NCBI RefSeq assembly: GCF_057098645.1
Contig: NZ_CM169472.1
Strand: one strand, 5' to 3'
Length of the DNA: 64,000 nt
Position numbers and translations under genes: made by a program. Within the stretch, counting starts at the first letter, position 1; every line of letters starts with the position of its first letter. Below, in pieces: positions 1 through 14,271 of this stretch. The notes beneath the pieces are model-generated. The model worked only from the letters and a program-made list of their open reading frames with translations. It did not search any database and had not been told where the DNA came from.

Positions 1-780
1 GTAAAAGCCTCTTTTGCATTACAGGGCGCACACCTTCTCTCGTGGAAACCTGCGGGTGAAGAAGAAGTTCTGTGGTTGAGCAACAACACACCGTTCAAAA
101 ATGGCATCGCTATTCGCGGTGGCGTACCGGTTTGCTGGCCGTGGTTTGGTCCGGCGGCACAACAAGGCCTGCCTGCGCACGGTTTTGCCCGCAACCTGCC
201 GTGGACGCTGAAATCACATCGTGAAGATGCTGATGGCGTAGCGCTGACTTTTGAATTGACACAAAGCGAAGAGACGAAAAAATTCTGGCCGCACGACTTT
301 ACGCTGTTAGCGCATTTCCGCGTGGGTAAAACCTGTGAAATCGATCTTGAAGCACACGGCGAATTTGAAACCACCTCTGCCCTGCATACCTACTTTAACG
401 TGGGTGATATCGCTAAGGTAAGCGTCAGTGGGCTGGGCGATCGCTTCATTGATAAAGTAAATGACGCGAAAGAAGATGTACTGACCGACGGTATTCAGAC
501 CTTCCCTGACCGTACCGATCGCGTGTATCTGAATCCGCAAGATTGCAGCGTGATTAATGATGAAGCGCTGAATCGTATTATCGCCGTAGGCCACCAGCAT
601 CATCTGAACGTTGTAGGCTGGAACCCGGGACCGGCGCTTTCAGTTAGCATGGGCGATATGCCGGATGATGGCTACAAAACATTTGTTTGTGTAGAAACGG
701 CTTACGCTTCAGAAACGCAAAAAGTGACCAAAGAGAAACCTGCACATCTGGCGCAATCCATTCGCGTTGCGAAACGTTAA
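1..780 (+). CDS. yeaD: Glucose-6-phosphate 1-epimerase-like protein YeaD, 5' end outside window
   Basis: Frame is open from base 1 with no stop; ORF track 76..780 is the internal Met; product recognised as YeaD. Confidence 0.85.
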   Translation, partial: VKASFALQGAHLLSWKPAGEEEVLWLSNNTPFKNGIAIRGGVPVCWPWFGPAAQQGLPAHGFARNLPWTLKSHREDADGVALTFELTQSEETKKFWPHDFTLLAHFRVGKTCEIDLEAHGEFETTSALHTYFNVGDIAKVSVSGLGDRFIDKVNDAKEDVLTDGIQTFPDRTDRVYLNPQDCSVINDEALNRIIAVGHQHHLNVVGWNPGPALSVSMGDMPDDGYKTFVCVETAYASETQKVTKEKPAHLAQSIRVAKR

Positions 781-789
781 TTTGCGTTA

Positions 790-826
790 ATGTTGTGTGC
801 CGGGTGCGATGCATCCGGCACGTATC
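790..826. terminator. Palindromic stem-loop between convergent yeaD and yeaE, likely bidirectional terminator or REP-like element
   Basis: GTGCCGG...CCGGCAC inverted repeat directly after the yeaD stop; no strong T-run. Confidence 0.35.
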
Positions 827-830
827 AACA

Positions 831-1144
831 TCACACCATATCCAGCGCAGTTTTTCCTTTTGGTGCCGGATACGCTTTGTCCAGCATGGCTAATTCCGCT
901 GACGAAAGTTCGACCTCAAGCACAGCCGCATTCTGTTGGACATGGGCAATCGTGGCCGCTTTTGGAATCGCCATCACACCCTGATGGCTGATTACCCACG
1001 CCAACAATACTTGTGCCGCGCTGATATTGTGAGCATGTGCAATTTCGTTGACTACCGCGTTTTTTAACAGTCCATTGCGCAACCGCCCGGCCTGGGCTAA
1101 CGGACTGTAAGCCATCACCGGCATCTGCTGTTGCTGGCACCAGG
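831..1144 (-). pseudogene. yeaE: yeaE 3' fragment (aldo-keto reductase), separated from its 5' part by the IS insertion
   Basis: ORF 831..1217 matches the YeaE C-terminus from WCQQQQMPVMAYS onward; the upstream part of that ORF reads into IS sequence. Confidence 0.85.
1138..1144. repeat. Target-site duplication CACCAGG, left copy
   Basis: The same 7-mer flanks both IS ends (1138..1144 and 3785..3791); the reconstructed yeaE reading frame needs only one copy. Confidence 0.75.
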
Positions 1145-1346
1145 TGCAAAATGGCATCTGAATCGATCGCAGTTTGGCATTCGAATCGATCATGATTTGG
1201 CATCCATCTCCGATCACAGTTTGGCATCACAATCGATCACGATTTGGCATGCTTCCGATCATTGATTGGCATCCTGCCAGTCACTCCGGGAATTAACTCT
1301 TTTCACCACAGTCTCCATTGCCGTGTTTAAACCAGTGGAGACGTCA

Positions 1347-2912
1347 ATGTCCAGAAAGAGAAAATCCAGGAGCACTATGGAAACCTGTTTTAAGATCCTT
1401 CAGCTCAAGTTCGACAAGAAGCTGACTAACCGTTGTATCGGACTGACGTTACACATCAGCGCCTCAACCGTTTTTGAGGTTCTTGCCCGCTTCAAAGCCT
1501 CTTCTCTGTCATGGCCATTACCTGCTGATATATCCCATGACACGCTGGAGAAACTCATTTTTCCGCCCAAAGACACCTTTGCATCAGAGCTTGTAATGCC
1601 TGACATGTTGTACTTCGATACGGAAATGAGAAAACCAGGTGTGACGCGGCAACTGTTGTGGATGGAATACAAGGCACAGGCGGGTAACAAAGCGATGGGA
1701 TACTCGCACTTCTGCCGTTGCTACCGGGAGTGGAAAAAAACGCGACGTCTCTCCATGCGCCAGGAGCATCGTGCCGGCGAAAAGCTTTTTATCGACTTCT
1801 GTGGTCCTACGGTTCCTGTTATTAATCCGGACACCGGTGAGATACGCCGCGTGGCAATCTTCGTGGCCGTAATGGGGGCGTCCAACTATACCTACGTTGA
1901 AGCGTGCGAAGGTCAGGACATGATGTCATGGTTAAATGCCCACAGCCGTTGCCTGACCTTCCTGGGCGGCGTACCGAAGCTGCTCATCCCCGATAACCTC
2001 AGAAGCGCAGTGAAAAAGGCCGATCGATATGAGCCTGTCATCAACGACAGTTATCAGGCACTGGCTGAGCACTATGGCACGGTTATCATCCCGGCCCGAC
2101 CACGCAAACCTAAAGATAAACCAAAAGCAGAAAACGGCGTCCTCATCGTTGAACGATGGCTTCTTGCCCGCATCCGTAATGAAACCTTCCACACGCTCAG
2201 GGCGCTGAATGCGCGCCTTAGGGAGTTACTGACAGACATGAATAACCGGCCAATGAAGGGGTACGGCAATCAAACCCGTGCAGAACGCTTCCGCATACTG
2301 GATGCGCCAGCACTCTCTCCGCTGCCTCTGGCACCTTATGAATACACGGAATACAAAGCTGTGAAGGTTGGCCCTGACTACCACGTTGAATATGCCCGTC
2401 ACTGGTACTCCGTTCCACACGAACTGGTCGGTCAGCGTCTGTCACTGAAGGCGGGGCAGTCGGTGGTACAGCTCTGGCACAAGGGGCAGTGTGTGGCGCA
2501 ACATCCGCGCAGCACACATGAATATAAACACACAACCAATCCGCTTCACATGCCAGAGCGCCACCGGCAGCACGGGACATGGACACCGGAACGCCTGATC
2601 GAGCAGGGAAAACGTACGGGCCCGTCCACAGGCCGGGTGGTTGAATCCATGCTGAAGGCAAAACCCCATCCGGAACTGGCTTATCGTGCAGTTCTGGGGC
2701 TGCTGGCACTTCAGAAAAAATACGGCCCGGAACGGCTGGAAAAGGCCTGTTACGTTGCCCTGCACTATAACGCCCCTGACAGACGCTTTATCGACAATCT
2801 GCTGCGTCACCATCGGGAGAACCTGGAGCTTCCATTATCCCGCCAGGGCGAACAACATCCGGCATATGCTTCAGAGCATGAAAACCTGCGTGGTCCGGGC
2901 TACTACCACTGA
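1347..2912 (+). CDS. istA: IS21-family transposase IstA (521 aa)
   Basis: ORF 1266..2912; preferred start ATG 1347 (MSRKRKS) preceded by GGAG; the longer ORF-track start lies inside the terminal repeats; family assignment rests on the two-gene layout and repeat architecture. Confidence 0.8.
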   Translation: MSRKRKSRSTMETCFKILQLKFDKKLTNRCIGLTLHISASTVFEVLARFKASSLSWPLPADISHDTLEKLIFPPKDTFASELVMPDMLYFDTEMRKPGVTRQLLWMEYKAQAGNKAMGYSHFCRCYREWKKTRRLSMRQEHRAGEKLFIDFCGPTVPVINPDTGEIRRVAIFVAVMGASNYTYVEACEGQDMMSWLNAHSRCLTFLGGVPKLLIPDNLRSAVKKADRYEPVINDSYQALAEHYGTVIIPARPRKPKDKPKAENGVLIVERWLLARIRNETFHTLRALNARLRELLTDMNNRPMKGYGNQTRAERFRILDAPALSPLPLAPYEYTEYKAVKVGPDYHVEYARHWYSVPHELVGQRLSLKAGQSVVQLWHKGQCVAQHPRSTHEYKHTTNPLHMPERHRQHGTWTPERLIEQGKRTGPSTGRVVESMLKAKPHPELAYRAVLGLLALQKKYGPERLEKACYVALHYNAPDRRFIDNLLRHHRENLELPLSRQGEQHPAYASEHENLRGPGYYH

Positions 2913-2928
2913 CAGAAGGAACAACAGT

Positions 2929-3684
2929 ATGAGTGATAACCTGTTAAACAAACTGACCCAACTGAAACTCCCGGCGATGGCCGGGAGCCTGATACGGCAG
3001 CGGGAAACGCCTCAGACCTACGACGAACTGTCGTTCGAGGAAAGGCTGACGCTGCTGGTTGATGACGAGCTTCTGAGCAGGGAAAACAGCCGTGTGGCAC
3101 GGTTGAGAAAAAATGCCGGCCTGAAATACCAGGCAACACCGGAAGGGCTGCGCTATCCGGCCTCAAGAGGTCTGCGGGCTGAACAGATGAGAGAACTGCT
3201 GAACGGCCACTACATAACCCACAGGAAAAACCTGCTGATAACCGGTCCGACAGGATGTGGCAAGAGCTGGATAGCCAATGCGCTGGGCGAACAGGCATGT
3301 CGACAGAAACACAGCGTCCGGTACTGTAGAACCGGGCGATTACTGGAACAACTGGCTCAGGGACGTGTTGATGGCAGCTGGCTGAAATATCTGAAACAGT
3401 TGCAAAAAATACAGGTTCTAATCCTGGACGATCTGGGGCTGGAACAGTTAAGTAACGCCCAGTGTAATGACCTTCTGGAGCTCATAGAGGATCGTTACGG
3501 ACAAAGCAGCACGATAGTGGTAAGCCAGTTCCCGGTAGATAAATGGCATGGTCTGATGGAGAACCCAACAACAGCAGATGCCATCCTGGACAGACTGGTA
3601 CATAACTCACACCGAGTGGTCCTTCAGGGAGAGTCACTGAGGAAAAATCCCCCGGTAGTGGAAAGCAGCGAAAAAACGCGTTAA
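2929..3684 (+). CDS. istB: IS21-family helper ATPase IstB (251 aa)
   Basis: Walker A GPTGCGKSW and DExx-like LILDDLG motifs; ATG 2929 preceded by AAGGA, 16 nt after the istA stop; ORF-track upstream extension overlaps istA and is not used. Confidence 0.85.
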   Translation: MSDNLLNKLTQLKLPAMAGSLIRQRETPQTYDELSFEERLTLLVDDELLSRENSRVARLRKNAGLKYQATPEGLRYPASRGLRAEQMRELLNGHYITHRKNLLITGPTGCGKSWIANALGEQACRQKHSVRYCRTGRLLEQLAQGRVDGSWLKYLKQLQKIQVLILDDLGLEQLSNAQCNDLLELIEDRYGQSSTIVVSQFPVDKWHGLMENPTTADAILDRLVHNSHRVVLQGESLRKNPPVVESSEKTR

Positions 3685-3784
3685 AAAGCGGTAGAAAAAG
3701 TTAAGTTCCCGGTTGATCGAATGGATGCGAATCGCTGATCGGACTTCGATGCCAATCCGTGATCGAATAGAGCGGAATACGCAC

Positions 3785-3791
3785 ACCAGGG
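3785..3791. repeat. Target-site duplication CACCAGG, right copy
   Basis: Identical to 1138..1144. Confidence 0.75.
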
Positions 3792-4331
3792 GAGTAGATC
3801 GTACTCAATCCCTCGTGAACCGAGATGGTAAAGCACCTGATTAGTGGCACACTGATTTCCCCCCGGCAGCTGCCAGAGTTCCTGCATATCAGCATAATCA
3901 AGGTTAGAAACGCCCCAGCGGCGGATTTTTCCCTGGGCGATCAATTTTTCCATCGCTGCGACAGTCTCTTCAAAAGCGAAACGGCCAGACCAGTGTAATA
4001 AGTAGAGATCGAGATAATCAGTATTGAGACGGCGTAAACTGGCTTCGCATGCATTTATCGCTTTTTGCCCGCCAGCATTCCACGGATAGACTTTAGAGAC
4101 GAGAAAGACGTTATCGCGCAGACCGGTTAATGCTTCCCCAACCACCTTTTCGGCACCGCCATCGGCATACATTTCGGCGGTATCAATGAGGGTTAAACCG
4201 AGCTCAATGCCCGCGCGTAGTGCAGCAACTTCTGTTTTGCGCTGACTGGCATCTTCGCCCATATACCATGTTCCCTGCCCTATGGCTGGCAGTGAGACAT
4301 CGCCACTAAATTGAATCATTTTTTGTTGCAT
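3785..4331 (-). pseudogene. yeaE: yeaE 5' fragment (aldo-keto reductase N-terminal about 182 codons)
   Basis: ORF 3681..4331 matches YeaE from MQQKMIQFSG to LLPWC, then continues into IS-derived sequence. Confidence 0.85.
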
Positions 4332-4364
4332 TGTTTCCTCCCAGGTATTGCACCACCGTAATGC

Positions 4365-4390
4365 AAAACAGGGCGTGACGCCCTGTTTTT
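4365..4390. terminator. Stem-loop with flanking A/T runs downstream of mipA
   Basis: AAAACAGGGCGTGACGCCCTGTTTTT. Confidence 0.55.
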
Positions 4391-4420
4391 ATGCACAAAA
4401 TGCCCTGGAAAGATGCATTA

Positions 4421-5167
4421 TCAGAATTTGTAGGTGATCCCGGTAGAAATCAGGCCAGTCCAGGATTTATCCACCATCGGGCTGTCAGTAACTTCATCAG
4501 ACAGACGGGTGTAGCGCGCGGTACCGTAAACACTCCAGTCGCCGAGGAAGTTGTAGCTGGCGCTCAGCTCCAGGTAAGGGCTCCAGCTGTCGTTCGGGTT
4601 ATAGCCACGCAGACCGCTGCGAGCGGACTCTTTGCGCGATACGCCATAATAGTATTCGTTCTGGTTTTCGCTGTTCCACTGCACACCAATACCCGGAGTC
4701 ACGGTCAGGCCACCGTTGGTGTAACGATACAACCAGGCCATATCCCAGACGATGCCGTTGCTGTTATCCAGGGTATCGCCAGCCAGGGTGGTACGCAGGT
4801 AACCGTACTGGGTAAAGTGAGCATAAGACAGACCAGCCATCATGGTGCTCTTACGGTCATCCAGGTGACGCATTTGGTGATCGCCACTGTCTTTAGCTTT
4901 GAAGTAAAGCGGCGACCAGTAAGCGGTAATTGAAAGTTTATCCGTTGCGTCATTCCACAGGTAGTAACCACCACCTAAGCCACGGAACCAGAAGTTATCG
5001 CCTTCATAGTTGATTACCGGTACTGGGTAAACATCGGTATCGTAATCTTTATATGGGTGTTCAACGACACCTACGCCTGCGCCCAGGGAAAATTTACCTT
5101 CAGCGTGCGCTACGCCTGCAGACGTTGCGATAAGCACTCCAAGTGCCAGAAGTTTGAGTTTGGTCAC
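4421..5167 (-). CDS. mipA: MltA-interacting outer-membrane protein MipA
   Basis: 248-aa ORF with signal peptide and beta-barrel-like sequence; recognised as MipA. Confidence 0.9.
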   Translation of the reverse strand: MTKLKLLALGVLIATSAGVAHAEGKFSLGAGVGVVEHPYKDYDTDVYPVPVINYEGDNFWFRGLGGGYYLWNDATDKLSITAYWSPLYFKAKDSGDHQMRHLDDRKSTMMAGLSYAHFTQYGYLRTTLAGDTLDNSNGIVWDMAWLYRYTNGGLTVTPGIGVQWNSENQNEYYYGVSRKESARSGLRGYNPNDSWSPYLELSASYNFLGDWSVYGTARYTRLSDEVTDSPMVDKSWTGLISTGITYKF

Positions 5168-5483
5168 AATTAATCATTCCTTAAACAAATGTTTAGCGGG
5201 CGACAAAGTTTACCCGTCAATACATCGAAACCCAACCTTTTTACGTTTTCATTTTTTAAAGTAACTGTTTAATTTTCCTGACGCGGATGACACCGCGCTT
5301 ACAGCCAAATGAATTTAGCGTTACTGGCGAGCCTGGTCTTTACATTAATTATGCAAAATTTATGGATGAGTTGTTGATATGCCATTGAAATTAAGAAAGC
5401 CGTGTAGGCAAGTTTTCCATTTGCCATCTACGCTTAATTTTGAAGGTGTATCACCGGGCACGTTGTTCTCATCGTCGATAAAA

Positions 5484-5499
5484 TGGCATGAGAGTTGCT
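5484..5499 (+). promoter_or_regulatory. Candidate sigma-54 promoter (-24 TGGCAT / -12 TTGCT) upstream of yeaG
   Basis: TGGCATgagagTTGCT about 105 nt upstream of the yeaG ATG; matches the GG-N10-GC spacing. Confidence 0.4.
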
Positions 5500-5602
5500 G
5501 TGTTTTAGCAAGAGACGTCGTTCAGTTTACCTCTTCCGGGAGCCTCTACTATTCATATGAACGGCTCTTAACCTGTGCTAAAAAACGAAAGGACGGCATA
5601 CC

Positions 5603-7537
5603 ATGAATATATTCGATCACTATCGCCAGCGATATGAAGCTGCCAAGGACGAAGAGTTCACACTGCAGGAGTTTCTTACCACTTGTCGGCAAGATCGCAG
5701 TGCTTATGCCAACGCGGCTGAGCGGCTATTGATGGCTATCGGTGAGCCTGTCATGGTCGATACAGCCCAGGAACCCAGACTTTCTCGACTCTTTTCTAAC
5801 CGGGTCATTGCACGTTATCCGGCGTTTGAAGAGTTTTACGGCATGGAAGACGCGATTGAACAGATTGTCTCTTATCTGAAACACGCGGCTCAGGGGCTGG
5901 AAGAGAAGAAACAAATCCTGTATCTGCTGGGGCCTGTGGGTGGGGGTAAATCATCGCTTGCTGAGCGACTGAAATCATTAATGCAGCTCGTACCGATTTA
6001 TGTATTGAGCGCCAACGGTGAGCGTAGCCCGGTCAACGATCATCCGTTCTGTCTTTTCAATCCGCAGGAAGATGCGCAGATTCTGGAAAAAGAGTATGGC
6101 ATTCCTCGCCGTTATCTCGGCACCATCATGTCGCCGTGGGCGGCAAAACGTCTGCATGAATTTGGTGGCGATATTACTAAGTTCCGGGTAGTGAAGGTCT
6201 GGCCGTCCATTCTGCAACAAATTGCTATCGCCAAAACAGAGCCCGGTGATGAGAACAACCAGGACATCTCCGCGCTGGTAGGGAAAGTCGATATTCGTAA
6301 ACTCGAACACTACGCGCAGAATGACCCAGACGCCTATGGCTATTCCGGCGCACTGTGCCGCGCCAACCAGGGGATCATGGAATTCGTTGAGATGTTTAAA
6401 GCACCGATTAAAGTGCTGCATCCCTTGTTAACCGCCACTCAGGAAGGTAACTACAACGGGACGGAAGGTATCTCCGCCCTGCCGTTCAACGGGATTATTC
6501 TTGCCCACTCGAACGAGTCCGAATGGGTCACTTTCCGTAATAACAAAAACAACGAAGCCTTCCTCGATCGTGTTTACATCGTGAAGGTGCCGTATTGCTT
6601 GCGCATTTCCGAAGAGATCAAAATCTACGAGAAATTGCTTAATCACAGTGAATTGACTCACGCCCCATGCGCCCCTGGCACGCTCGAAACACTGTCACGT
6701 TTTTCCATTCTTTCGCGCCTGAAAGAGCCAGAAAACTCCAGCATTTATTCAAAGATGCGGGTTTATGATGGCGAAAGTCTGAAAGACACCGATCCCAAAG
6801 CCAAGTCGTATCAGGAATATCGTGACTACGCCGGTGTCGATGAAGGGATGAACGGTCTGTCGACGCGTTTTGCGTTTAAGATCCTCTCCCGCGTGTTCAA
6901 CTTCGATCATGTAGAAGTGGCGGCAAACCCGGTCCATCTGTTCTACGTCCTGGAACAGCAGATCGAGCGCGAGCAGTTCCCACAAGAGCAGGCAGAACGC
7001 TATCTGGAGTTCCTGAAAGGTTATCTGATCCCGAAATATGCCGAGTTTATTGGCAAAGAGATCCAGACGGCCTACCTTGAATCCTATTCCGAATATGGGC
7101 AAAACATTTTCGACCGTTATGTTACCTACGCGGATTTCTGGATTCAGGATCAGGAGTATCGCGATCCGGATACCGGGCAGCTGTTTGACCGCGAGTCTCT
7201 TAACGCCGAGCTGGAGAAAATCGAGAAACCGGCGGGGATCAGTAATCCAAAAGATTTCCGCAACGAGATTGTTAACTTCGTACTGCGCGCCAGAGCCAAT
7301 AACAGCGGACGCAATCCGAACTGGACCAGCTATGAAAAACTGCGCACGGTTATCGAGAAGAAAATGTTCTCCAATACCGAGGAGCTGTTGCCGGTTATCT
7401 CGTTTAACGCCAAAACGTCAACCGACGAGCAGAAGAAACACGACGACTTTGTCGACCGTATGATGGAAAAAGGCTACACCCGTAAACAGGTGCGTTTACT
7501 GTGCGAATGGTATTTGCGTGTACGTAAATCGTCTTAA
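5603..7537 (+). CDS. yeaG: PrkA-type serine protein kinase YeaG
   Basis: 644-aa ORF with P-loop GPVGGGKSS; recognised as YeaG. Confidence 0.9.
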   Translation: MNIFDHYRQRYEAAKDEEFTLQEFLTTCRQDRSAYANAAERLLMAIGEPVMVDTAQEPRLSRLFSNRVIARYPAFEEFYGMEDAIEQIVSYLKHAAQGLEEKKQILYLLGPVGGGKSSLAERLKSLMQLVPIYVLSANGERSPVNDHPFCLFNPQEDAQILEKEYGIPRRYLGTIMSPWAAKRLHEFGGDITKFRVVKVWPSILQQIAIAKTEPGDENNQDISALVGKVDIRKLEHYAQNDPDAYGYSGALCRANQGIMEFVEMFKAPIKVLHPLLTATQEGNYNGTEGISALPFNGIILAHSNESEWVTFRNNKNNEAFLDRVYIVKVPYCLRISEEIKIYEKLLNHSELTHAPCAPGTLETLSRFSILSRLKEPENSSIYSKMRVYDGESLKDTDPKAKSYQEYRDYAGVDEGMNGLSTRFAFKILSRVFNFDHVEVAANPVHLFYVLEQQIEREQFPQEQAERYLEFLKGYLIPKYAEFIGKEIQTAYLESYSEYGQNIFDRYVTYADFWIQDQEYRDPDTGQLFDRESLNAELEKIEKPAGISNPKDFRNEIVNFVLRARANNSGRNPNWTSYEKLRTVIEKKMFSNTEELLPVISFNAKTSTDEQKKHDDFVDRMMEKGYTRKQVRLLCEWYLRVRKSS

Positions 7538-7637
7538 CAACCCTGGCCCGGTACACATGCTACCGGGCCTACAACGACAGCGAACCGTGGGCCAGAGAAA
7601 TGGCAACACAGGCGTAGCATACAGTTGGCAAATGTAG

Positions 7638-8933
<1,296 letters not shown>

Positions 8934-8937
8934 AACT

Positions 8938-8970
8938 ATCAGCCGGGTCATTATCGCCTGGCTGATTTTT
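8938..8970 (+). terminator. Rho-independent terminator after yeaH
   Basis: ATCAGCCGGG...CCTGGCTGAT hairpin followed by TTTTT. Confidence 0.6.
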
Positions 8971-9079
8971 AGCTTACTGTAAATTATCTCATTTATTACA
9001 TACATTAGCTTACAATCGCTTTAAATATGACAGCATAACCTTTACATAATTTAGTTCCAGAAAACAATCATTCGGAAAA

Positions 9080-10555
9080 ATGATTCAGTCAACACGTATT
9101 TCCATGGGGTTATTCTTTAAATATTTTTTATCGTTAACGAAAATTGATCTTGGTCAAAACTATATATCTCTGCCATCAATAAAATCCAGCACTCACATTG
9201 TTCTCCTTTTTATGGTTTCTATGGGTACACAAAAATTAAAAGCTCAAAGCTTTTTTATTTTCAGTTTATTGCTGACGTTAATTTTATTTTGCATTACTAC
9301 CTTATATAACGAAAACACAAATGTAAAACTCATCCCACAGATGAATTACCTGATGGTTGTTGTGGCTTTGTTTTTCCTTAACGCCGTCATTTTTCTTTTC
9401 ATGTTAATGAAATATTTCACTAACAAACAAATTTTACCAACACTCATTTTAAGCCTTGCATTTTTAAGTGGCCTTATCTATTTAGTTGAAACCATTGTAA
9501 TTATCCATAAACCAATTAACGGCAGTACACTGATCCAGACAAAGTCGAATGATGTTTCTATTTTCTATATTTTCCGCCAACTCAGTTTTATTTGTTTAAC
9601 CTCGCTGGCGCTCTTTTGTTATGGCAAAGACAACATCCTGAACAATAATAAGAAAAAAACGGCAATCCTGTTGCTGGCGCTGATCCCTTTTTTATTTTTT
9701 CCCGTTCTGGCACACAATCTGAGCAGTTATAACGCTGACTATTCTTTGTATGTCGTCGATTACTGTCCTGACAACCATACTGCGACCTGGGGAATCAACT
9801 ATACAAAAATATTGGTTTGTCTGTGGGCATTTTTACTGTTCTTTATTATCATGCGTACACGATTAGCCAGCGAACTATGGCCATTAATAGCATTATTATG
9901 TCTGGCATCGCTATGCTGCAACTTACTTCTACTGACTCTGGATGAGTATAATTACACCATCTGGTACATCAGTCGCGGGATTGAAGTCTCCAGTAAACTG
10001 TTTGTTGTGTCTTTTCTGATTTATAACATTTTTCAGGAGCTGCAACTCTCCAGCAAACTGGCAGTTCATGATGTGCTGACCAATATTTATAATCGGCGCT
10101 ACTTTTTCAACAGCGTAGAGTCATTATTGTCGCGACCTGTTGTTAAGGACTTTTGTGTCATGTTGGTTGATATTAATCAGTTCAAACGCATCAATGCCCA
10201 ATGGGGACATCGTGTGGGTGATAAAGTGCTGGTATCAATTGTCGATATTATCCAGCAAAGCATCCGCCCCGATGATATTTTAGCGCGACTGGAGGGTGAG
10301 GTGTTTGGCTTGCTATTTACCGAACTCAATAGTGCCCAGGCAAAAATCATTGCGGAACGTATGCGTAAAAATGTCGAACTCCTGACCGGCTTTAGTAACA
10401 GATATGATGTTCCTGAACAAATGACCATCAGTATTGGCACTGTTTTTTCAACGGGTGACACGCGTAATATCTCGCTTGTCATGACGGAAGCAGATAAAGC
10501 CTTACGCGAAGCGAAAAGCGAGGGGGGCAACAAAGTGATTATTCATCATATTTAA
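9080..10555 (+). CDS. yeaI: Membrane GGDEF-domain protein with degenerate active-site motif (EGEVF)
   Basis: 491-aa ORF; AT-rich multi-TM N-terminus; RLEGEVFGLLF where GGDEF is expected. Confidence 0.85.
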   Translation: MIQSTRISMGLFFKYFLSLTKIDLGQNYISLPSIKSSTHIVLLFMVSMGTQKLKAQSFFIFSLLLTLILFCITTLYNENTNVKLIPQMNYLMVVVALFFLNAVIFLFMLMKYFTNKQILPTLILSLAFLSGLIYLVETIVIIHKPINGSTLIQTKSNDVSIFYIFRQLSFICLTSLALFCYGKDNILNNNKKKTAILLLALIPFLFFPVLAHNLSSYNADYSLYVVDYCPDNHTATWGINYTKILVCLWAFLLFFIIMRTRLASELWPLIALLCLASLCCNLLLLTLDEYNYTIWYISRGIEVSSKLFVVSFLIYNIFQELQLSSKLAVHDVLTNIYNRRYFFNSVESLLSRPVVKDFCVMLVDINQFKRINAQWGHRVGDKVLVSIVDIIQQSIRPDDILARLEGEVFGLLFTELNSAQAKIIAERMRKNVELLTGFSNRYDVPEQMTISIGTVFSTGDTRNISLVMTEADKALREAKSEGGNKVIIHHI

Positions 10556-10735
10556 GTGCAAAAATATTCAGAGCCATGCTTTTTGCGTGGCTTTTGCATA
10601 CAATTTATTACTATTACCCCTAAATTTCCCCTCCCCAGCGGCGCAGAGATGAGTATAATTAGCGCCCCTGTGCCAGGCCGCAATCGAACTTTATCTGGTT
10701 TTCTCGTTTCACTAACCGAAGGAGTGCCATTTATC

Positions 10736-12226
10736 ATGAAATTGCACCATAGAATGCTCCGGCATTTTATCGCCGCAAGTGTCATTGTGCTGACATCTTC
10801 CTTCCTTATTTTTGAACTTGTCGCCAGCGACAGAGCAATGAGTGCCTATCTGCGCTATATCGTGCAGAAAGCAGACTCCTCCTTTCTTTATGATAAGTAT
10901 CAGAATCAGAGTATTGCCGCGCATGTGATGCGCGCTCTCGCTGCTGAGCAGTCGGAAGTGTCGCCAGAACAGCGGCGCGCCATCTGCGAGGCTTTTGAGT
11001 CTGCCAATAATACCCATGGCTTAAACCTGACTGCCCATAAATACCCGGGCTTACGCGGCACACTACAAACCGCATCCACTGACTGCGACACAATTGTGGA
11101 AGCTGCAGCACTATTACCCGCTTTTGATCAGGCAGTGGAAGGCAACCGCCACCAGGATGATTACGGTTCAGGTCTTGGGATGGCCGAAGAGAAATTTCAC
11201 TATTATCTCGATCTCAATGACCGCTATGTCTATTTTTATGAGCCGGTTAATGTTGAATACTTTGCGATGAATAACTGGTCCTTCCTGCAGTCAGGAAGTA
11301 TTGGCATCGATCGCAAAGATATTGAAAAGGTATTTACCGGGCGTACCGTATTGTCGAGCATTTACCAGGATCAGCGTACTAAACAGAACGTGATGAGTTT
11401 GCTGACGCCGGTGTATGTTGCAGGGCAGCTAAAAGGGATTGTGCTGCTGGATATTAACAAAAACAATCTGCGGAATATCTTTTACACTCATGACCGCCCT
11501 CTCCTCTGGCGTTTTCTCAATGTCACGCTAACCGATACAGATTCGGGGCGCGACATTATCATCAACCAGAGCGAAGATAATCTGTTCCAGTATGTCAGTT
11601 ACGTCCATGACTTACCGGGCGGCATTCGTGTCTCGTTATCCATTGATATTCTTTACTTTATCACGTCTTCGTGGAAAAGCGTTCTGTTCTGGATTTTGAC
11701 GGCGTTAATTTTGCTGAATATGGTGCGGATGCACTTCCGCTTATACCAAAATGTGTCGCGAGAAAATATTAGTGATGCGATGACTGGACTGTATAATCGC
11801 AAAATTTTAACCCCTGAACTGGAGCAGCGGTTGCAGAAACTGGTGCAATCCGGTTCTTCGGTGATGTTTATTGCAATTGACATGGACAAGTTAAAGCTAA
11901 TAAATGACACCCTCGGTCATCAGGAAGGGGATTTAGCGATTACGTTGTTAGCTCAGGCGATTAAACAGTCGATTCGTAAAAGTGATTATGCCATCCGACT
12001 CGGTGGCGATGAATTCTGCATCATTCTTGTCGATTCGACGCCGCAAATTGCATCACAACTGCCTGAACGTATCGAAAAACGTCTGCAACATATCGCGCCG
12101 CAGAAAGAGATCGGCTTCTCTTCCGGTATTTACGCGATGAAAGAAAACGATACGTTACATGATGCGTATAAAGCTTCCGATGAGCGTTTATATGTCAATA
12201 AGCAGAACAAAAACAGCCGTTCATGA
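10736..12226 (+). CDS. yeaJ: Diguanylate cyclase YeaJ (intact GGDEF)
   Basis: Start ATG 10736 (MKLHHRML) after AAGGAG gives 496 aa; RLGGDEF present; ORF-track start 10556 is an upstream extension. Confidence 0.85.
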   Translation: MKLHHRMLRHFIAASVIVLTSSFLIFELVASDRAMSAYLRYIVQKADSSFLYDKYQNQSIAAHVMRALAAEQSEVSPEQRRAICEAFESANNTHGLNLTAHKYPGLRGTLQTASTDCDTIVEAAALLPAFDQAVEGNRHQDDYGSGLGMAEEKFHYYLDLNDRYVYFYEPVNVEYFAMNNWSFLQSGSIGIDRKDIEKVFTGRTVLSSIYQDQRTKQNVMSLLTPVYVAGQLKGIVLLDINKNNLRNIFYTHDRPLLWRFLNVTLTDTDSGRDIIINQSEDNLFQYVSYVHDLPGGIRVSLSIDILYFITSSWKSVLFWILTALILLNMVRMHFRLYQNVSRENISDAMTGLYNRKILTPELEQRLQKLVQSGSSVMFIAIDMDKLKLINDTLGHQEGDLAITLLAQAIKQSIRKSDYAIRLGGDEFCIILVDSTPQIASQLPERIEKRLQHIAPQKEIGFSSGIYAMKENDTLHDAYKASDERLYVNKQNKNSRS

Positions 12227-12268
12227 TAACCTTCTGTGGTTGTTTGCTTGTAATCTCAGGAGCATGAA

Positions 12269-12772
12269 ATGACTGAAATGGCTAAAGGAAGCGTGACGCA
12301 TCAGCGGTTAATCGCTTTATTATCACAAGAAGGTGCAGACTTCCGCGTCGTTACCCATGAAGCGGTAGGTAAATGTGAAGCGGTGTCAGAAATTCGTGGC
12401 ACCGCTTTAGGCCAGGGGGCTAAGGCACTGGTATGTAAAGTCAAAGGCAATGGCGTAAATCAACATGTTCTGGCGATCCTCGCTGCGGATCAACAGGCCG
12501 ATCTGAGCCAACTCGCCAGCCATATAGGCGGATTACGCGCTTCGTTGGCCAGCCCGGCGGAAGTCGATGAACTCACAGGCTGTGTCTTCGGCGCGATCCC
12601 CCCTTTCAGCTTCCATCCAAAACTCAAACTGGTTGCCGACCCCCTACTCTTCGAACGATTTGATGAAATCGCCTTCAATGCAGGCATGCTGGATAAATCC
12701 GTTATTTTGAAAACCGCGGATTATTTGCGCATTGCGCAACCAGAACTGATCAATTTCCGCCGCACTGCGTAA
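12269..12772 (+). CDS. yeaK: YbaK/ProX-family aminoacyl-tRNA deacylase YeaK
   Basis: 167-aa ORF recognised as YeaK. Confidence 0.85.
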   Translation: MTEMAKGSVTHQRLIALLSQEGADFRVVTHEAVGKCEAVSEIRGTALGQGAKALVCKVKGNGVNQHVLAILAADQQADLSQLASHIGGLRASLASPAEVDELTGCVFGAIPPFSFHPKLKLVADPLLFERFDEIAFNAGMLDKSVILKTADYLRIAQPELINFRRTA

Positions 12773-12877
12773 CTAGCCTGTCCGTTCAATAAGCAGAACG
12801 GACAAAACCAGCACAACAGCAATGGCAAAAAACGATGACGTGATAATCAGTGTCTCGACGAACATTTGATCGTTCAT
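12773..12877 (-). CDS. yoaI: Small membrane protein YoaI (34 aa)
   Basis: Hand translation of the minus strand gives [34 protein letters not shown]; below the ORF-track length cut-off. Confidence 0.75.
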
Positions 12878-13046
12878 AGCATGCCCCCGGGAGATAGCTG
12901 TTTTCACGTTATTGTTAGCGTGCACAAATGGCAGTTTGATGACAGTTCGCCTGATTTTTTATGCAAAAAACGTAAAGATTTTCTACTTCCTTCCTGCAGC
13001 AAGCGTAAAGTAAGCAGGCTTATTATTTTTTGGCAAGGAAACCACG

Positions 13047-13493
13047 ATGTTTGATGTCACTTTGCTGATCCTGCTCGGGTTAGCTGCGCTGGGCTTTATC
13101 AGTCATAACACCACTGTCGCCGTTTCAATTCTGGTGTTGATCATTGTCCGCGTCACACCGTTAAGCACCTTTTTCCCGTGGATTGAAAAACAGGGGCTAA
13201 GTATCGGGATAATCATTCTGACGATTGGCGTTATGGCCCCCATCGCCAGCGGGACGCTACCGCCCTCAACCTTGATTCACTCGTTTCTGAACTGGAAATC
13301 GCTGGTGGCAATTGCAGTAGGCGTTATTGTCTCCTGGCTGGGTGGGCGCGGCGTGACGTTAATGGGCAGCCAGCCGCAACTGGTTGCTGGGCTGCTGGTG
13401 GGCACTGTTTTAGGCGTAGCGCTGTTTCGCGGCGTACCGGTTGGCCCGCTTATTGCCGCGGGTCTGGTTTCGCTGATTGTGGGGAAACAGTAG
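13047..13493 (+). CDS. yeaL: UPF0756 inner-membrane protein YeaL
   Basis: 148-aa hydrophobic ORF recognised as YeaL. Confidence 0.85.
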
Positions 13494-14271
13494 TTAATCC
13501 CGCAATATATCGGCCTGGCGTTTGCCCCAGGCCTTTCTTAAACATAGTAATAAAGGCCGTTGTTGAATCATACCCCAGCGTATGAGCAACTTTCTGTACA
13601 GTATCGCCTTTCACTAATCCCTGAAGCGCCATAATCAGCTGTAACTGCTGACGCCACTGGCGAAAACTCAACCCCGTCTCTTTTACTATCAGTCGGGCAA
13701 GATTGCGTTCACTCATCGCAAAAAAGCCAGCCCATTGCCCCAATGACCCCCACTCGACGGGCTCTTTCGCCATCATCTCCACCATCGTGCGGATTTTAGG
13801 ATGAGAAGAAACGGGCAAGTGCAGCTGTTGTTGTGGCTGCTGAGGGAGTTCATCAAACAGGACCTGAATTAATCTGCGGGTCATCGGCTCAGCACGCTGA
13901 GTCGTAGTCCTGTTTGCCAGGGTTAAAATCAATTCCCGGCATAAGGGCGATATTTTCAATGTGCAACATGTTGTCGGCATTGTCACTGCGCTGGGTTCGA
14001 TAAACAGAAAACAGAGTTCAGCGTTAGCTGTCACTTGATTGCTATGCTTCACCCCGCCCGGTATCCAAACCGCATATTGTGGCGGCACCATCCACAAAGC
14101 ATTTTCCACCGTACAGGTAATTGCACCATGTAATGCCAGTATCAGCTGTCCTTTGCGGTGCTGATGTACAGGACTGGTTAACTCATCCGTTCCGGCGTGA
14201 ATACAAAATGCGACCGCGGCTTCATGGTGTCGGTCGGGTTCATAGCCATTGAGATTCAACCTGTGCATCAT
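13450..14271 (-). CDS. yeaM: AraC-family transcriptional regulator YeaM (NimR)
   Basis: 273-aa ORF with C-terminal AraC HTH; divergent from yeaN; 3' end overlaps yeaL. Confidence 0.85.

Follow-up and report, generated by a model that had tools for sequence, protein, structure and literature searches.

An ISSso4-like insertion sequence of the IS21 family interrupts the aldo-keto reductase gene yeaE in an O145:H28-like Escherichia coli

Near the left end of the window, by which we mean the whole 64-kb stretch of DNA analyzed here, the gene yeaE is present as two minus-strand fragments that flank a complete insertion sequence. The yeaE product is an NADPH-dependent methylglyoxal/glyoxal aldo-keto reductase, and the position of the fragments between yeaD and mipA agrees with that of bona fide yeaE. 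The features of the locus are as follows.

831..1144, minus strand: 3′ fragment of yeaE, the C-terminal 104 codons, including the left copy of the duplication
1138..1144, strandless: target-site duplication, left copy, CACCAGG, 7 bp (read directly; longest flank repeat computed)
1145..3783, plus strand: complete IS21-family insertion sequence, a variant of ISSso4, 2,639 bp, with TG...CA ends
1145..1273, plus strand: left terminal region, terminal TGCAAAATGGCATC and five direct repeats (repeat search and motif scan)
1347..2912, plus strand: istA, DDE transposase, 521 aa from the ATG at 1347 or 511 aa from a second in-frame ATG at 1377
2929..3684, plus strand: istB, AAA+ helper ATPase, 251 aa, with Walker A GPTGCGKS at residues 106-113 and Walker B LILDD at residues 164-168
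3714..3783, minus strand: right terminal region, two inverted repeat copies (3749-3764 and 3725-3740) and a partial third, terminal ...GGAATACGCA
3784..3790, strandless: target-site duplication, right copy, CACCAGG, 7 bp (read directly; longest flank repeat computed)
3784..4331, minus strand: 5′ fragment of yeaE, codons 1-182 plus two bases of codon 183

A preliminary description of this DNA had proposed that an IS21-family element splits yeaE, and the family-level protein matches, the 7-bp duplication and a clean empty site all bear this out. The TG...CA ends are present with their multiple terminal repeats, CACCAGG is exact on both flanks, and the istB product has the length (251 aa) and the GPTGCGKSW motif that had been given for it. 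The right-hand boundaries, by comparison, were each displaced by one base. The element does start at 1145 but ends at 3783 rather than 3784, for a length of 2,639 and not 2,640 bp; the overall span runs from 1138 as described but to 3790 rather than 3791; and the 3′ fragment of yeaE stands at 831..1144, whereas the 5′ fragment begins at 3784 instead of 3785. The figure of 521 aa for IstA holds from the first ATG, although the start is ambiguous and RefSeq begins identical copies of istA at the ATG at 1377, giving 511 aa.

The element runs from TGCAAAATGG to GGAATACGCA, and its multiple ≈23-bp repeats, of which the left end has five and the right end two, are typical of IS21 elements. On the left the repeats take the form GATC-N6-TT(T/G)GGCAT (1165-1180, 1188-1203, 1212-1227, 1235-1250, and 1257-1272, with a spacing of 22-24 bp) and are the presumed IstA binding sites. 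These left repeats are kept in an Enterobacter relative that is 83.5% identical overall and in which the terminal repeats are better conserved than the coding sequence; the right terminal region is 98% conserved across relatives. Both istA ATG codons are also conserved in the 83.5%-identical relative, as is the second Shine-Dalgarno sequence, whereas the first Shine-Dalgarno sequence is weaker there.

The two genes are intact, with conserved motifs, and lie on the same strand in the order istA then istB with a gap of 16 bp. The element has no room for passenger genes, and none had been described. Domain matches were found for both open reading frames in NCBIfam and Pfam. IstA scores 284.6 bits against NF033546 and IstB 257.8 bits against NF038214, relative to the curated NCBIfam cut-offs for the IS21 family of 160 and 200 bits, respectively. 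IstA contains the Pfam domains rve and Mu-transpos_C_2 and matches the IS5376 IstA structures (PDB 8b4h/8q4d, E ≈1e-13), and its triad D150/D216/E262 (521-aa numbering) aligns with the experimentally validated D124/D187/E233 of IS5376. IstB matches Pfam IstB_IS21 (PF01695) at 1.2e-60 and the IS5376 IstB structures (PDB 8q3w/5bq5) at E = 3.7e-24. Gene order, an IstA with its catalytic triad, an IstB with its Walker motifs and repeat-bearing TG...CA ends thus all follow the IS21 family, and the duplication and length fall within the family ranges of 4-8 bp and about 2-2.7 kb.

Matches of the 3′ fragment to the aldo-keto reductase (AKR) family are weak, the best being DkgA at 42.2 bits (cut-off 425), and the identity of the fragments as yeaE rests on alignments to the yeaE genes of K-12 and of the O145:H28 strain RM12761. 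Removal of the element and one copy of CACCAGG restores an uninterrupted yeaE of 855 bp. When 701-1144 is joined to 3791-4450, the alignment with K-12 yeaE is gapless at the join (...GCTGGCACCAGGGGAGTAG...) and contains a single CACCAGG, as the preliminary description had anticipated for the empty site. A longer join, of 1-1144 to 3791-13790, gives an ungapped 11,144-bp alignment with RM12761 that contains 2 mismatches, and the empty site in O145:H28 likewise holds one copy. The fragments together encode the whole reductase: the reconstructed YeaE of 284 aa is identical to the RM12761 protein WP_001186340.1 and shares 280 of 284 residues with K-12 YeaE (281 of 285 counting the stop codon). The chance of an exact 7-bp repeat flanking the exact ends of the element is ≈6e-5, and because yeaE is restored without a gap when the element is removed, coincidence is ruled out. 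The whole window is collinear with RM12761, with 16 mismatches and no gaps over 59.7 kb, and the insertion sequence is the sole insertion or deletion.

The insertion cuts YeaE after about residue 182, and the (alpha/beta)8-barrel reductase is therefore almost certainly inactive, as judged from the truncation. The 5′ reading frame of yeaE continues into the right end of the element to a stop at 3681, creating a truncated 216-aa fusion (minus-strand open reading frame 3681..4331) for which an exact look-up returned nothing on record. The insertion affects no downstream gene, since yeaE comes last and is followed by the convergent yeaD.

The element shares with IS21, the prototype from plasmid R68.45, and with IS5376, which serves as the family's structural model, an istA/istB operon, the DDE triad, an AAA+ helper, terminal CA ends, multiple repeats, and short duplications, although the protein similarity is distant (IstA E about 1e-13). 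Here istA has two in-frame starts separated by 10 codons, a parallel to the IS21 transposase and cointegrase isoforms, which differ by 8 residues. IstA is longer here, at 511-521 aa versus ≈390-400 aa in IS21 and IS5376, with an extra C-terminal region of ≈120 residues that has no Pfam match. There are five left repeats versus two or three, and the duplication is 7 bp, whereas that of IS21 is 4 bp, such as TAAT in strain TUM9757. Unlike in IS21 and IS5376, a −35/−10 junction promoter is not detectable. A consensus promoter scan of 1000-4500 returned nothing in the left end, and no sigma-70-like site with 8 or more of 12 positions matched was present in the native left end or in right-end/left-end tandem junctions modelled with spacers of 0-7 bp.

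On the transposition mechanism described for the family (PMC10122671), and by analogy with the IS21/IS5376 model, tetramers of IstA would bind the repeated sites in both ends and expose the terminal 3′-CA. ATP-bound IstB would take hold of the target DNA and bring in IstA, and staggered strand transfer followed by repair would produce the 7-bp duplication CACCAGG.

Many E. coli chromosomes and plasmids carry full-length copies that are 100% identical and have the same ends, this variant being found mainly in poultry-associated E. coli. Near-full-length copies are present in 225 of 5,426 complete E. coli genomes, at up to 34 places per genome, and in 232 PLSDB plasmid records from Escherichia, Salmonella, Shigella, Klebsiella, and other genera. 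Eight further copies that we collected from unrelated contexts all start with TGCAAAATGG and finish with GGAATACGCA at the same exact positions. Seven are flanked by clear duplications of 4-7 bp that differ by site, whereas the eighth has only a 3-bp match, and no target consensus is evident among the nine collected duplications.

By convention in ISfinder, isoforms of one insertion sequence share >90% DNA and/or >95% protein identity. The copy on Shigella sonnei plasmid pMHMC-001, in which PGAP assigns both genes to ISSso4, is 96.3% identical to the element in DNA, 97.7% in IstA, and 97.2% in IstB. ISSso4, known from S. sonnei and also from plasmids such as pCT, measures 2,638 bp versus 2,639 bp here; the two copies have identical termini, the same istA-istB layout, and a 7-bp duplication each. 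Taken together, the element is by sequence a close variant of ISSso4, the comparison being with the PGAP-annotated S. sonnei copy rather than with the ISfinder entry. It might instead be regarded as a distinct, separately named member of the family, given that 98 nucleotide differences separate it from the S. sonnei copy, one of them a single-base insertion/deletion in the left non-coding region, and that PGAP labels IstA just "IS21 family transposase" while labeling IstB "ISSso4 family". We consider this rather unlikely, as the identical termini and the DNA and protein identities both argue for an isoform, the latter exceeding the isoform values with the S. sonnei copy as a proxy reference.

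We are highly confident in the overall interpretation that an autonomous element of the IS21 family, closely related to ISSso4, transposed into yeaE of an O145:H28-like E. coli at codons 181-183 and that this was a simple, recent, cargo-free event that almost certainly inactivated the gene. An assembly artefact, in which a repeat-resolution error misplaced a copy into yeaE and the true chromosome retains an intact gene, would account for the absence of the junction from all other genomes and assemblies searched: no identical junction between the element and yeaE occurs in the 5,426 complete E. coli genomes, and an exact 31-mer of it has 0 matches in the GTDB species representatives. A misassembly, however, would not give an exact 7-bp target duplication abutting the exact termini, nor would it leave yeaE perfectly restorable. 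Moreover, the sole match to the junction query with at least 80% coverage in the complete E. coli genomes, in strain CDF6 (NZ_CP158429), shows this element, with 4 mismatches, inserted into yeaE of a finished genome in the same orientation and with a 7-bp duplication. The CDF6 insertion lies at about nt 25-31 of yeaE with the duplication ACATCGC, and because the site and the strain background both differ, it is an independent event. An artefact is thus barely credible. It is also very unlikely that the copy is real but immobile, either a relic that has become fixed or an arm of some larger structure, a composite transposon or a genomic island. The left end without a detected promoter-like site would suit such a copy, but identical copies are spread over many strains and replicons, and no damage is seen in either open reading frame, in the catalytic residues, or in either end. 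The window holds a single copy of the element and is otherwise collinear with the reference genome, so there is neither a composite structure nor cargo. The fragments of yeaE carry no further lesions, which argues against an old insertion, and their flanks are nearly identical to O145:H28 genomes with intact yeaE; on this reading of the sequence, the insertion is recent, in agreement with the preliminary description. The suggestion made there that the element might be mobile gains indirect support from the identical copies that carry their own duplications in many replicons, and the simple insertion that we favor probably involves an element that is still transposition-competent.

The finding is a routine insertion of a known insertion sequence, and it has little importance beyond annotation, where the proper entry for yeaE is a pseudogene split by an IS21-family element of the ISSso4 type. 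The source strain is a natural yeaE knock-out. The gene is non-essential, and a strong phenotype is not expected, because E. coli has several other enzymes that detoxify glyoxal and methylglyoxal, including glyoxalase I, YqhD, and the aldo-keto reductases YqhE, YafB, YghZ, and YajO (PMC5297802). Within the O145:H28-like lineage, the insertion might be used as a strain-specific marker, and this variant, which is plentiful in E. coli from poultry and on conjugative plasmids, appears to have been active in an O145:H28-like background.

The gene is intact in 5,421 of the 5,426 complete E. coli genomes. Each disrupted or insertion-bearing allele that we inspected (three further disrupted alleles lay outside the inspection) carries a transposon that chooses its targets by means of an AAA+ ATPase, IstB or MuB. 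These alleles are the one in this window, with the ISSso4-like element; that of CDF6, with the same insertion sequence at another site; and that of TUM9757, with IS21 proper and a Mu-like prophage. There is only a slim chance that yeaE or its local DNA structure is a preferred target for such transposons, and coincidence is quite plausible, since a rough expectation is ≈0.3 IS21-family insertions per gene of the size of yeaE. All three IS21-family insertions are oriented antisense to yeaE.

The yeaE gene, which encodes an aldo-keto reductase on the minus strand, is split in the window by a single insertion sequence, as the preliminary description had proposed, and its interpretation as a genuine insertion of an IS21-family element is correct. 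In the sequence read from 700..4500, the left junction runs ...GTTGCTGG-CACCAGG, then TGCAAAATGGCATC..., and the right junction ...GAGCGGAATACGCA, then CACCAGG-GGAGTAG.... These junctions define the following features:

1138-1144, left copy of the CACCAGG duplication, read directly
1145..3783, the element, 2,639 bp with TG...CA ends
3784-3790, right copy of the CACCAGG duplication, read directly

Computation of the flank repeat shows that the 7-bp CACCAGG cannot be extended on either side. The limits originally assigned (element 1145..3784 and 2,640 bp long, yeaE fragment starting at 3785, right boundary at 3791) each need a one-base correction.

Removal of the element and one repeat copy restores the empty site. 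When joined, 701-1144 and 3791-4450 align to K-12 yeaE without a gap across the join, and 1-1144 joined to 3791-13790 matches RM12761, an E. coli O145:H28 reference with an intact yeaE, over 11,144 bp with two mismatches and no gaps. The rebuilt 284-aa YeaE does not differ from the RM12761 protein and agrees with K-12 YeaE at 280/284 residues. Across the whole window the IS is the sole structural difference from RM12761: window 1-1144 has no mismatches, the 59,717 bp to the right of the IS have 16 mismatches and no gaps, and the order is collinear from yeaD to copD with no other insertions or deletions. This makes the source an O145:H28-like strain outside the complete RefSeq genomes. The closest genomes are O145:H28 strains in which yeaE is intact and the 6-kb right flank is 100% identical; the window junction is absent from all 5,426 complete E. 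coli genomes searched.

An exact duplication at the exact IS termini makes it very unlikely that the insertion was created during assembly. Nor is an immobile relic or part of a composite element supported, as the window holds only one IS copy without cargo, and the genes and ends of that copy are intact. Several observations indicate a recent insertion: the yeaE fragments carry no changes beyond the RM12761 allele, the CACCAGG duplication is perfect, the IS sequence is identical to circulating copies, the closest genomes have an intact yeaE, and none of the 5,426 complete E. coli genomes has the junction.

The insertion point lies 182 codons and two bases into yeaE, and the 5' fragment runs into the right end of the IS to a stop at 3681, giving a 216-aa product. 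Because the cut after residue 182 removes ≈100 C-terminal residues of the barrel, loss of YeaE function is expected from the truncation. Five E. coli aldo-keto reductases, YeaE among them, act on glyoxal or methylglyoxal (PMC5297802). As yeaE is the last gene ahead of the convergent yeaD, no polar effect is expected. The gene is intact in 5,421 of the 5,426 complete E. coli genomes, and the window allele is thus a rare natural knock-out. The target is dispensable, and the insertion into it of an already known IS21-family element is entirely ordinary.

The only sizeable plus-strand ORFs of the element are istA and istB. IstA scores 284.6 bits against NF033546, the NCBIfam equivalog of the IS21-family transposase (cut-off 160), and IstB 257.8 bits against NF038214, the IS21-like helper ATPase (cut-off 200). 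Pfam assigns an rve domain and a Mu-transposase C-terminal beta-barrel to IstA, and IstB_IS21 (1.2e-60) to IstB; the two proteins match the IstA (8b4h, 8q4d) and IstB (8q3w, 5bq5) structures of the family member IS5376. Residues D150, D216, and E262 of IstA align to D124, D187, and E233 of IS5376 IstA, which are experimentally validated catalytic residues (PMC10122671). Unlike the 400-residue IS5376 IstA structure, the window IstA has a C-terminal extension of ≈120 residues past the beta-barrel (residues ≈398-521, nt ≈2538-2912), which has no Pfam match. The IstB motifs and the alternative istA starts are as follows:

IstB residues 106-113, Walker A, GPTGCGKS
IstB residues 164-168, Walker B, LILDD
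1347, plus strand, first in-frame istA ATG, Shine-Dalgarno-like GGAG at 1336-1339, 521 aa, chosen in the preliminary description
1377, plus strand, second in-frame istA ATG, Shine-Dalgarno-like AGGAG at 1368-1372, 511 aa, chosen by RefSeq

The two ATGs are 10 codons apart, and both are kept in ISSso4 and in an Enterobacter relative 83.5% identical to the element. This pairing recalls IS21, which produces a full-length transposase and a "cointegrase" lacking the first 8 residues (PMC10122671); since IS21 makes both, the window element may by analogy make both the 521-aa and the 511-aa IstA. No sigma-70-like promoter was detected in scans of the left end and modelled tandem junctions.

The left end carries a partial terminal copy followed by five direct repeats, GATC-N6-TT(T/G)GGCAT, spaced 22-24 bp apart, and the right end has two inverted copies and one partial copy. 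The window element shares this layout with IS21 elements, for which multiple-repeat ends have been described (PMC10122671). In the Enterobacter relative, an E. asburiae plasmid element with 83.5% identity overall, the left repeats are largely invariant and the last 124 bp of the non-coding right end (window 3660-3783, relative's locus 2810-2933) are 98% conserved, above the genes. Such conservation fits putative functional binding sites. We infer the mechanism of insertion from the family model (PMC10122671): IstA tetramers would synapse the two ends via the repeated sites, and ATP-bound IstB would capture target DNA and activate strand transfer at the 3'-CA ends, leaving staggered joints whose repair would yield the target-site duplication.

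The name of the element is the sole real uncertainty. In RefSeq, the istA product of circulating copies is labelled "IS21 family transposase" and the istB product "IS21-like element ISSso4 family helper ATPase IstB". A copy on a Shigella sonnei virulence plasmid, with both genes annotated as ISSso4, is 2,638 bp long and 96.3% identical in DNA to the window element (IstA 97.7%, IstB 97.2%), with the same termini and a 7-bp duplication. By ISfinder convention, with identities measured against this annotated copy, we take the window element to be a probable ISSso4 isoform. Published work mentions ISSso4 as a routine constituent of S. sonnei genomes, IncI plasmids, and mcr-1 plasmids.

Many chromosomes and plasmids of E. 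coli carry the 2,639-bp query at full length and 100% identity. Counting matches that cover at least 80% of the query, 225 of 5,426 complete E. coli genomes have a copy, in up to 34 places per genome, as do 232 PLSDB plasmid records from Escherichia, Salmonella, Shigella, Klebsiella, and other genera. Eight other copies that we inspected share these boundaries to the base; seven of them are each flanked by a duplication of their own (ACATCGC, CCCGG, GTCAAT, CGCAGAC, AGGA, GACTGG, and CTCAGGC), and the eighth, from a plasmid in GF60, an IS-rich strain, has a 3-bp flank match only. Ten of the 14 strains behind the best 25 matches (at least 99.8% identical) are of poultry or chicken origin. GF60 itself, from chicken meat, has the IS in at least 29 chromosomal places and on four plasmids, a copy number that points to ongoing expansion of this IS variant.

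Disruptions of yeaE also occur elsewhere. In E. coli CDF6 (NZ_CP158429), the same IS with four mismatches (4714-7352 of that locus) lies near codon 9 at the yeaE 5' end, ≈520 bp from the window site, in the same orientation and with a 7-bp duplication, ACATCGC; this insertion is independent of that in the window, and RefSeq annotates the remainder as a shortened yeaE of 840 bp. E. coli TUM9757 (NZ_CP128931; locus positions ≈6000 and 6340-8469) has two disruptive insertions in yeaE. One is IS21 proper, flanked by the 4-bp duplication TAAT and with its istAB genes antisense to yeaE; the second is a Mu-like prophage, and its terminal ...CGTTTTTCGTGCGCCGCTTCA adjoins the gene. The repeated insertions may be coincidence, with a target preference for yeaE as an improbable alternative; in all of these inspected alleles, including that of the window, the inserted transposon relies on an AAA+ ATPase for target selection.
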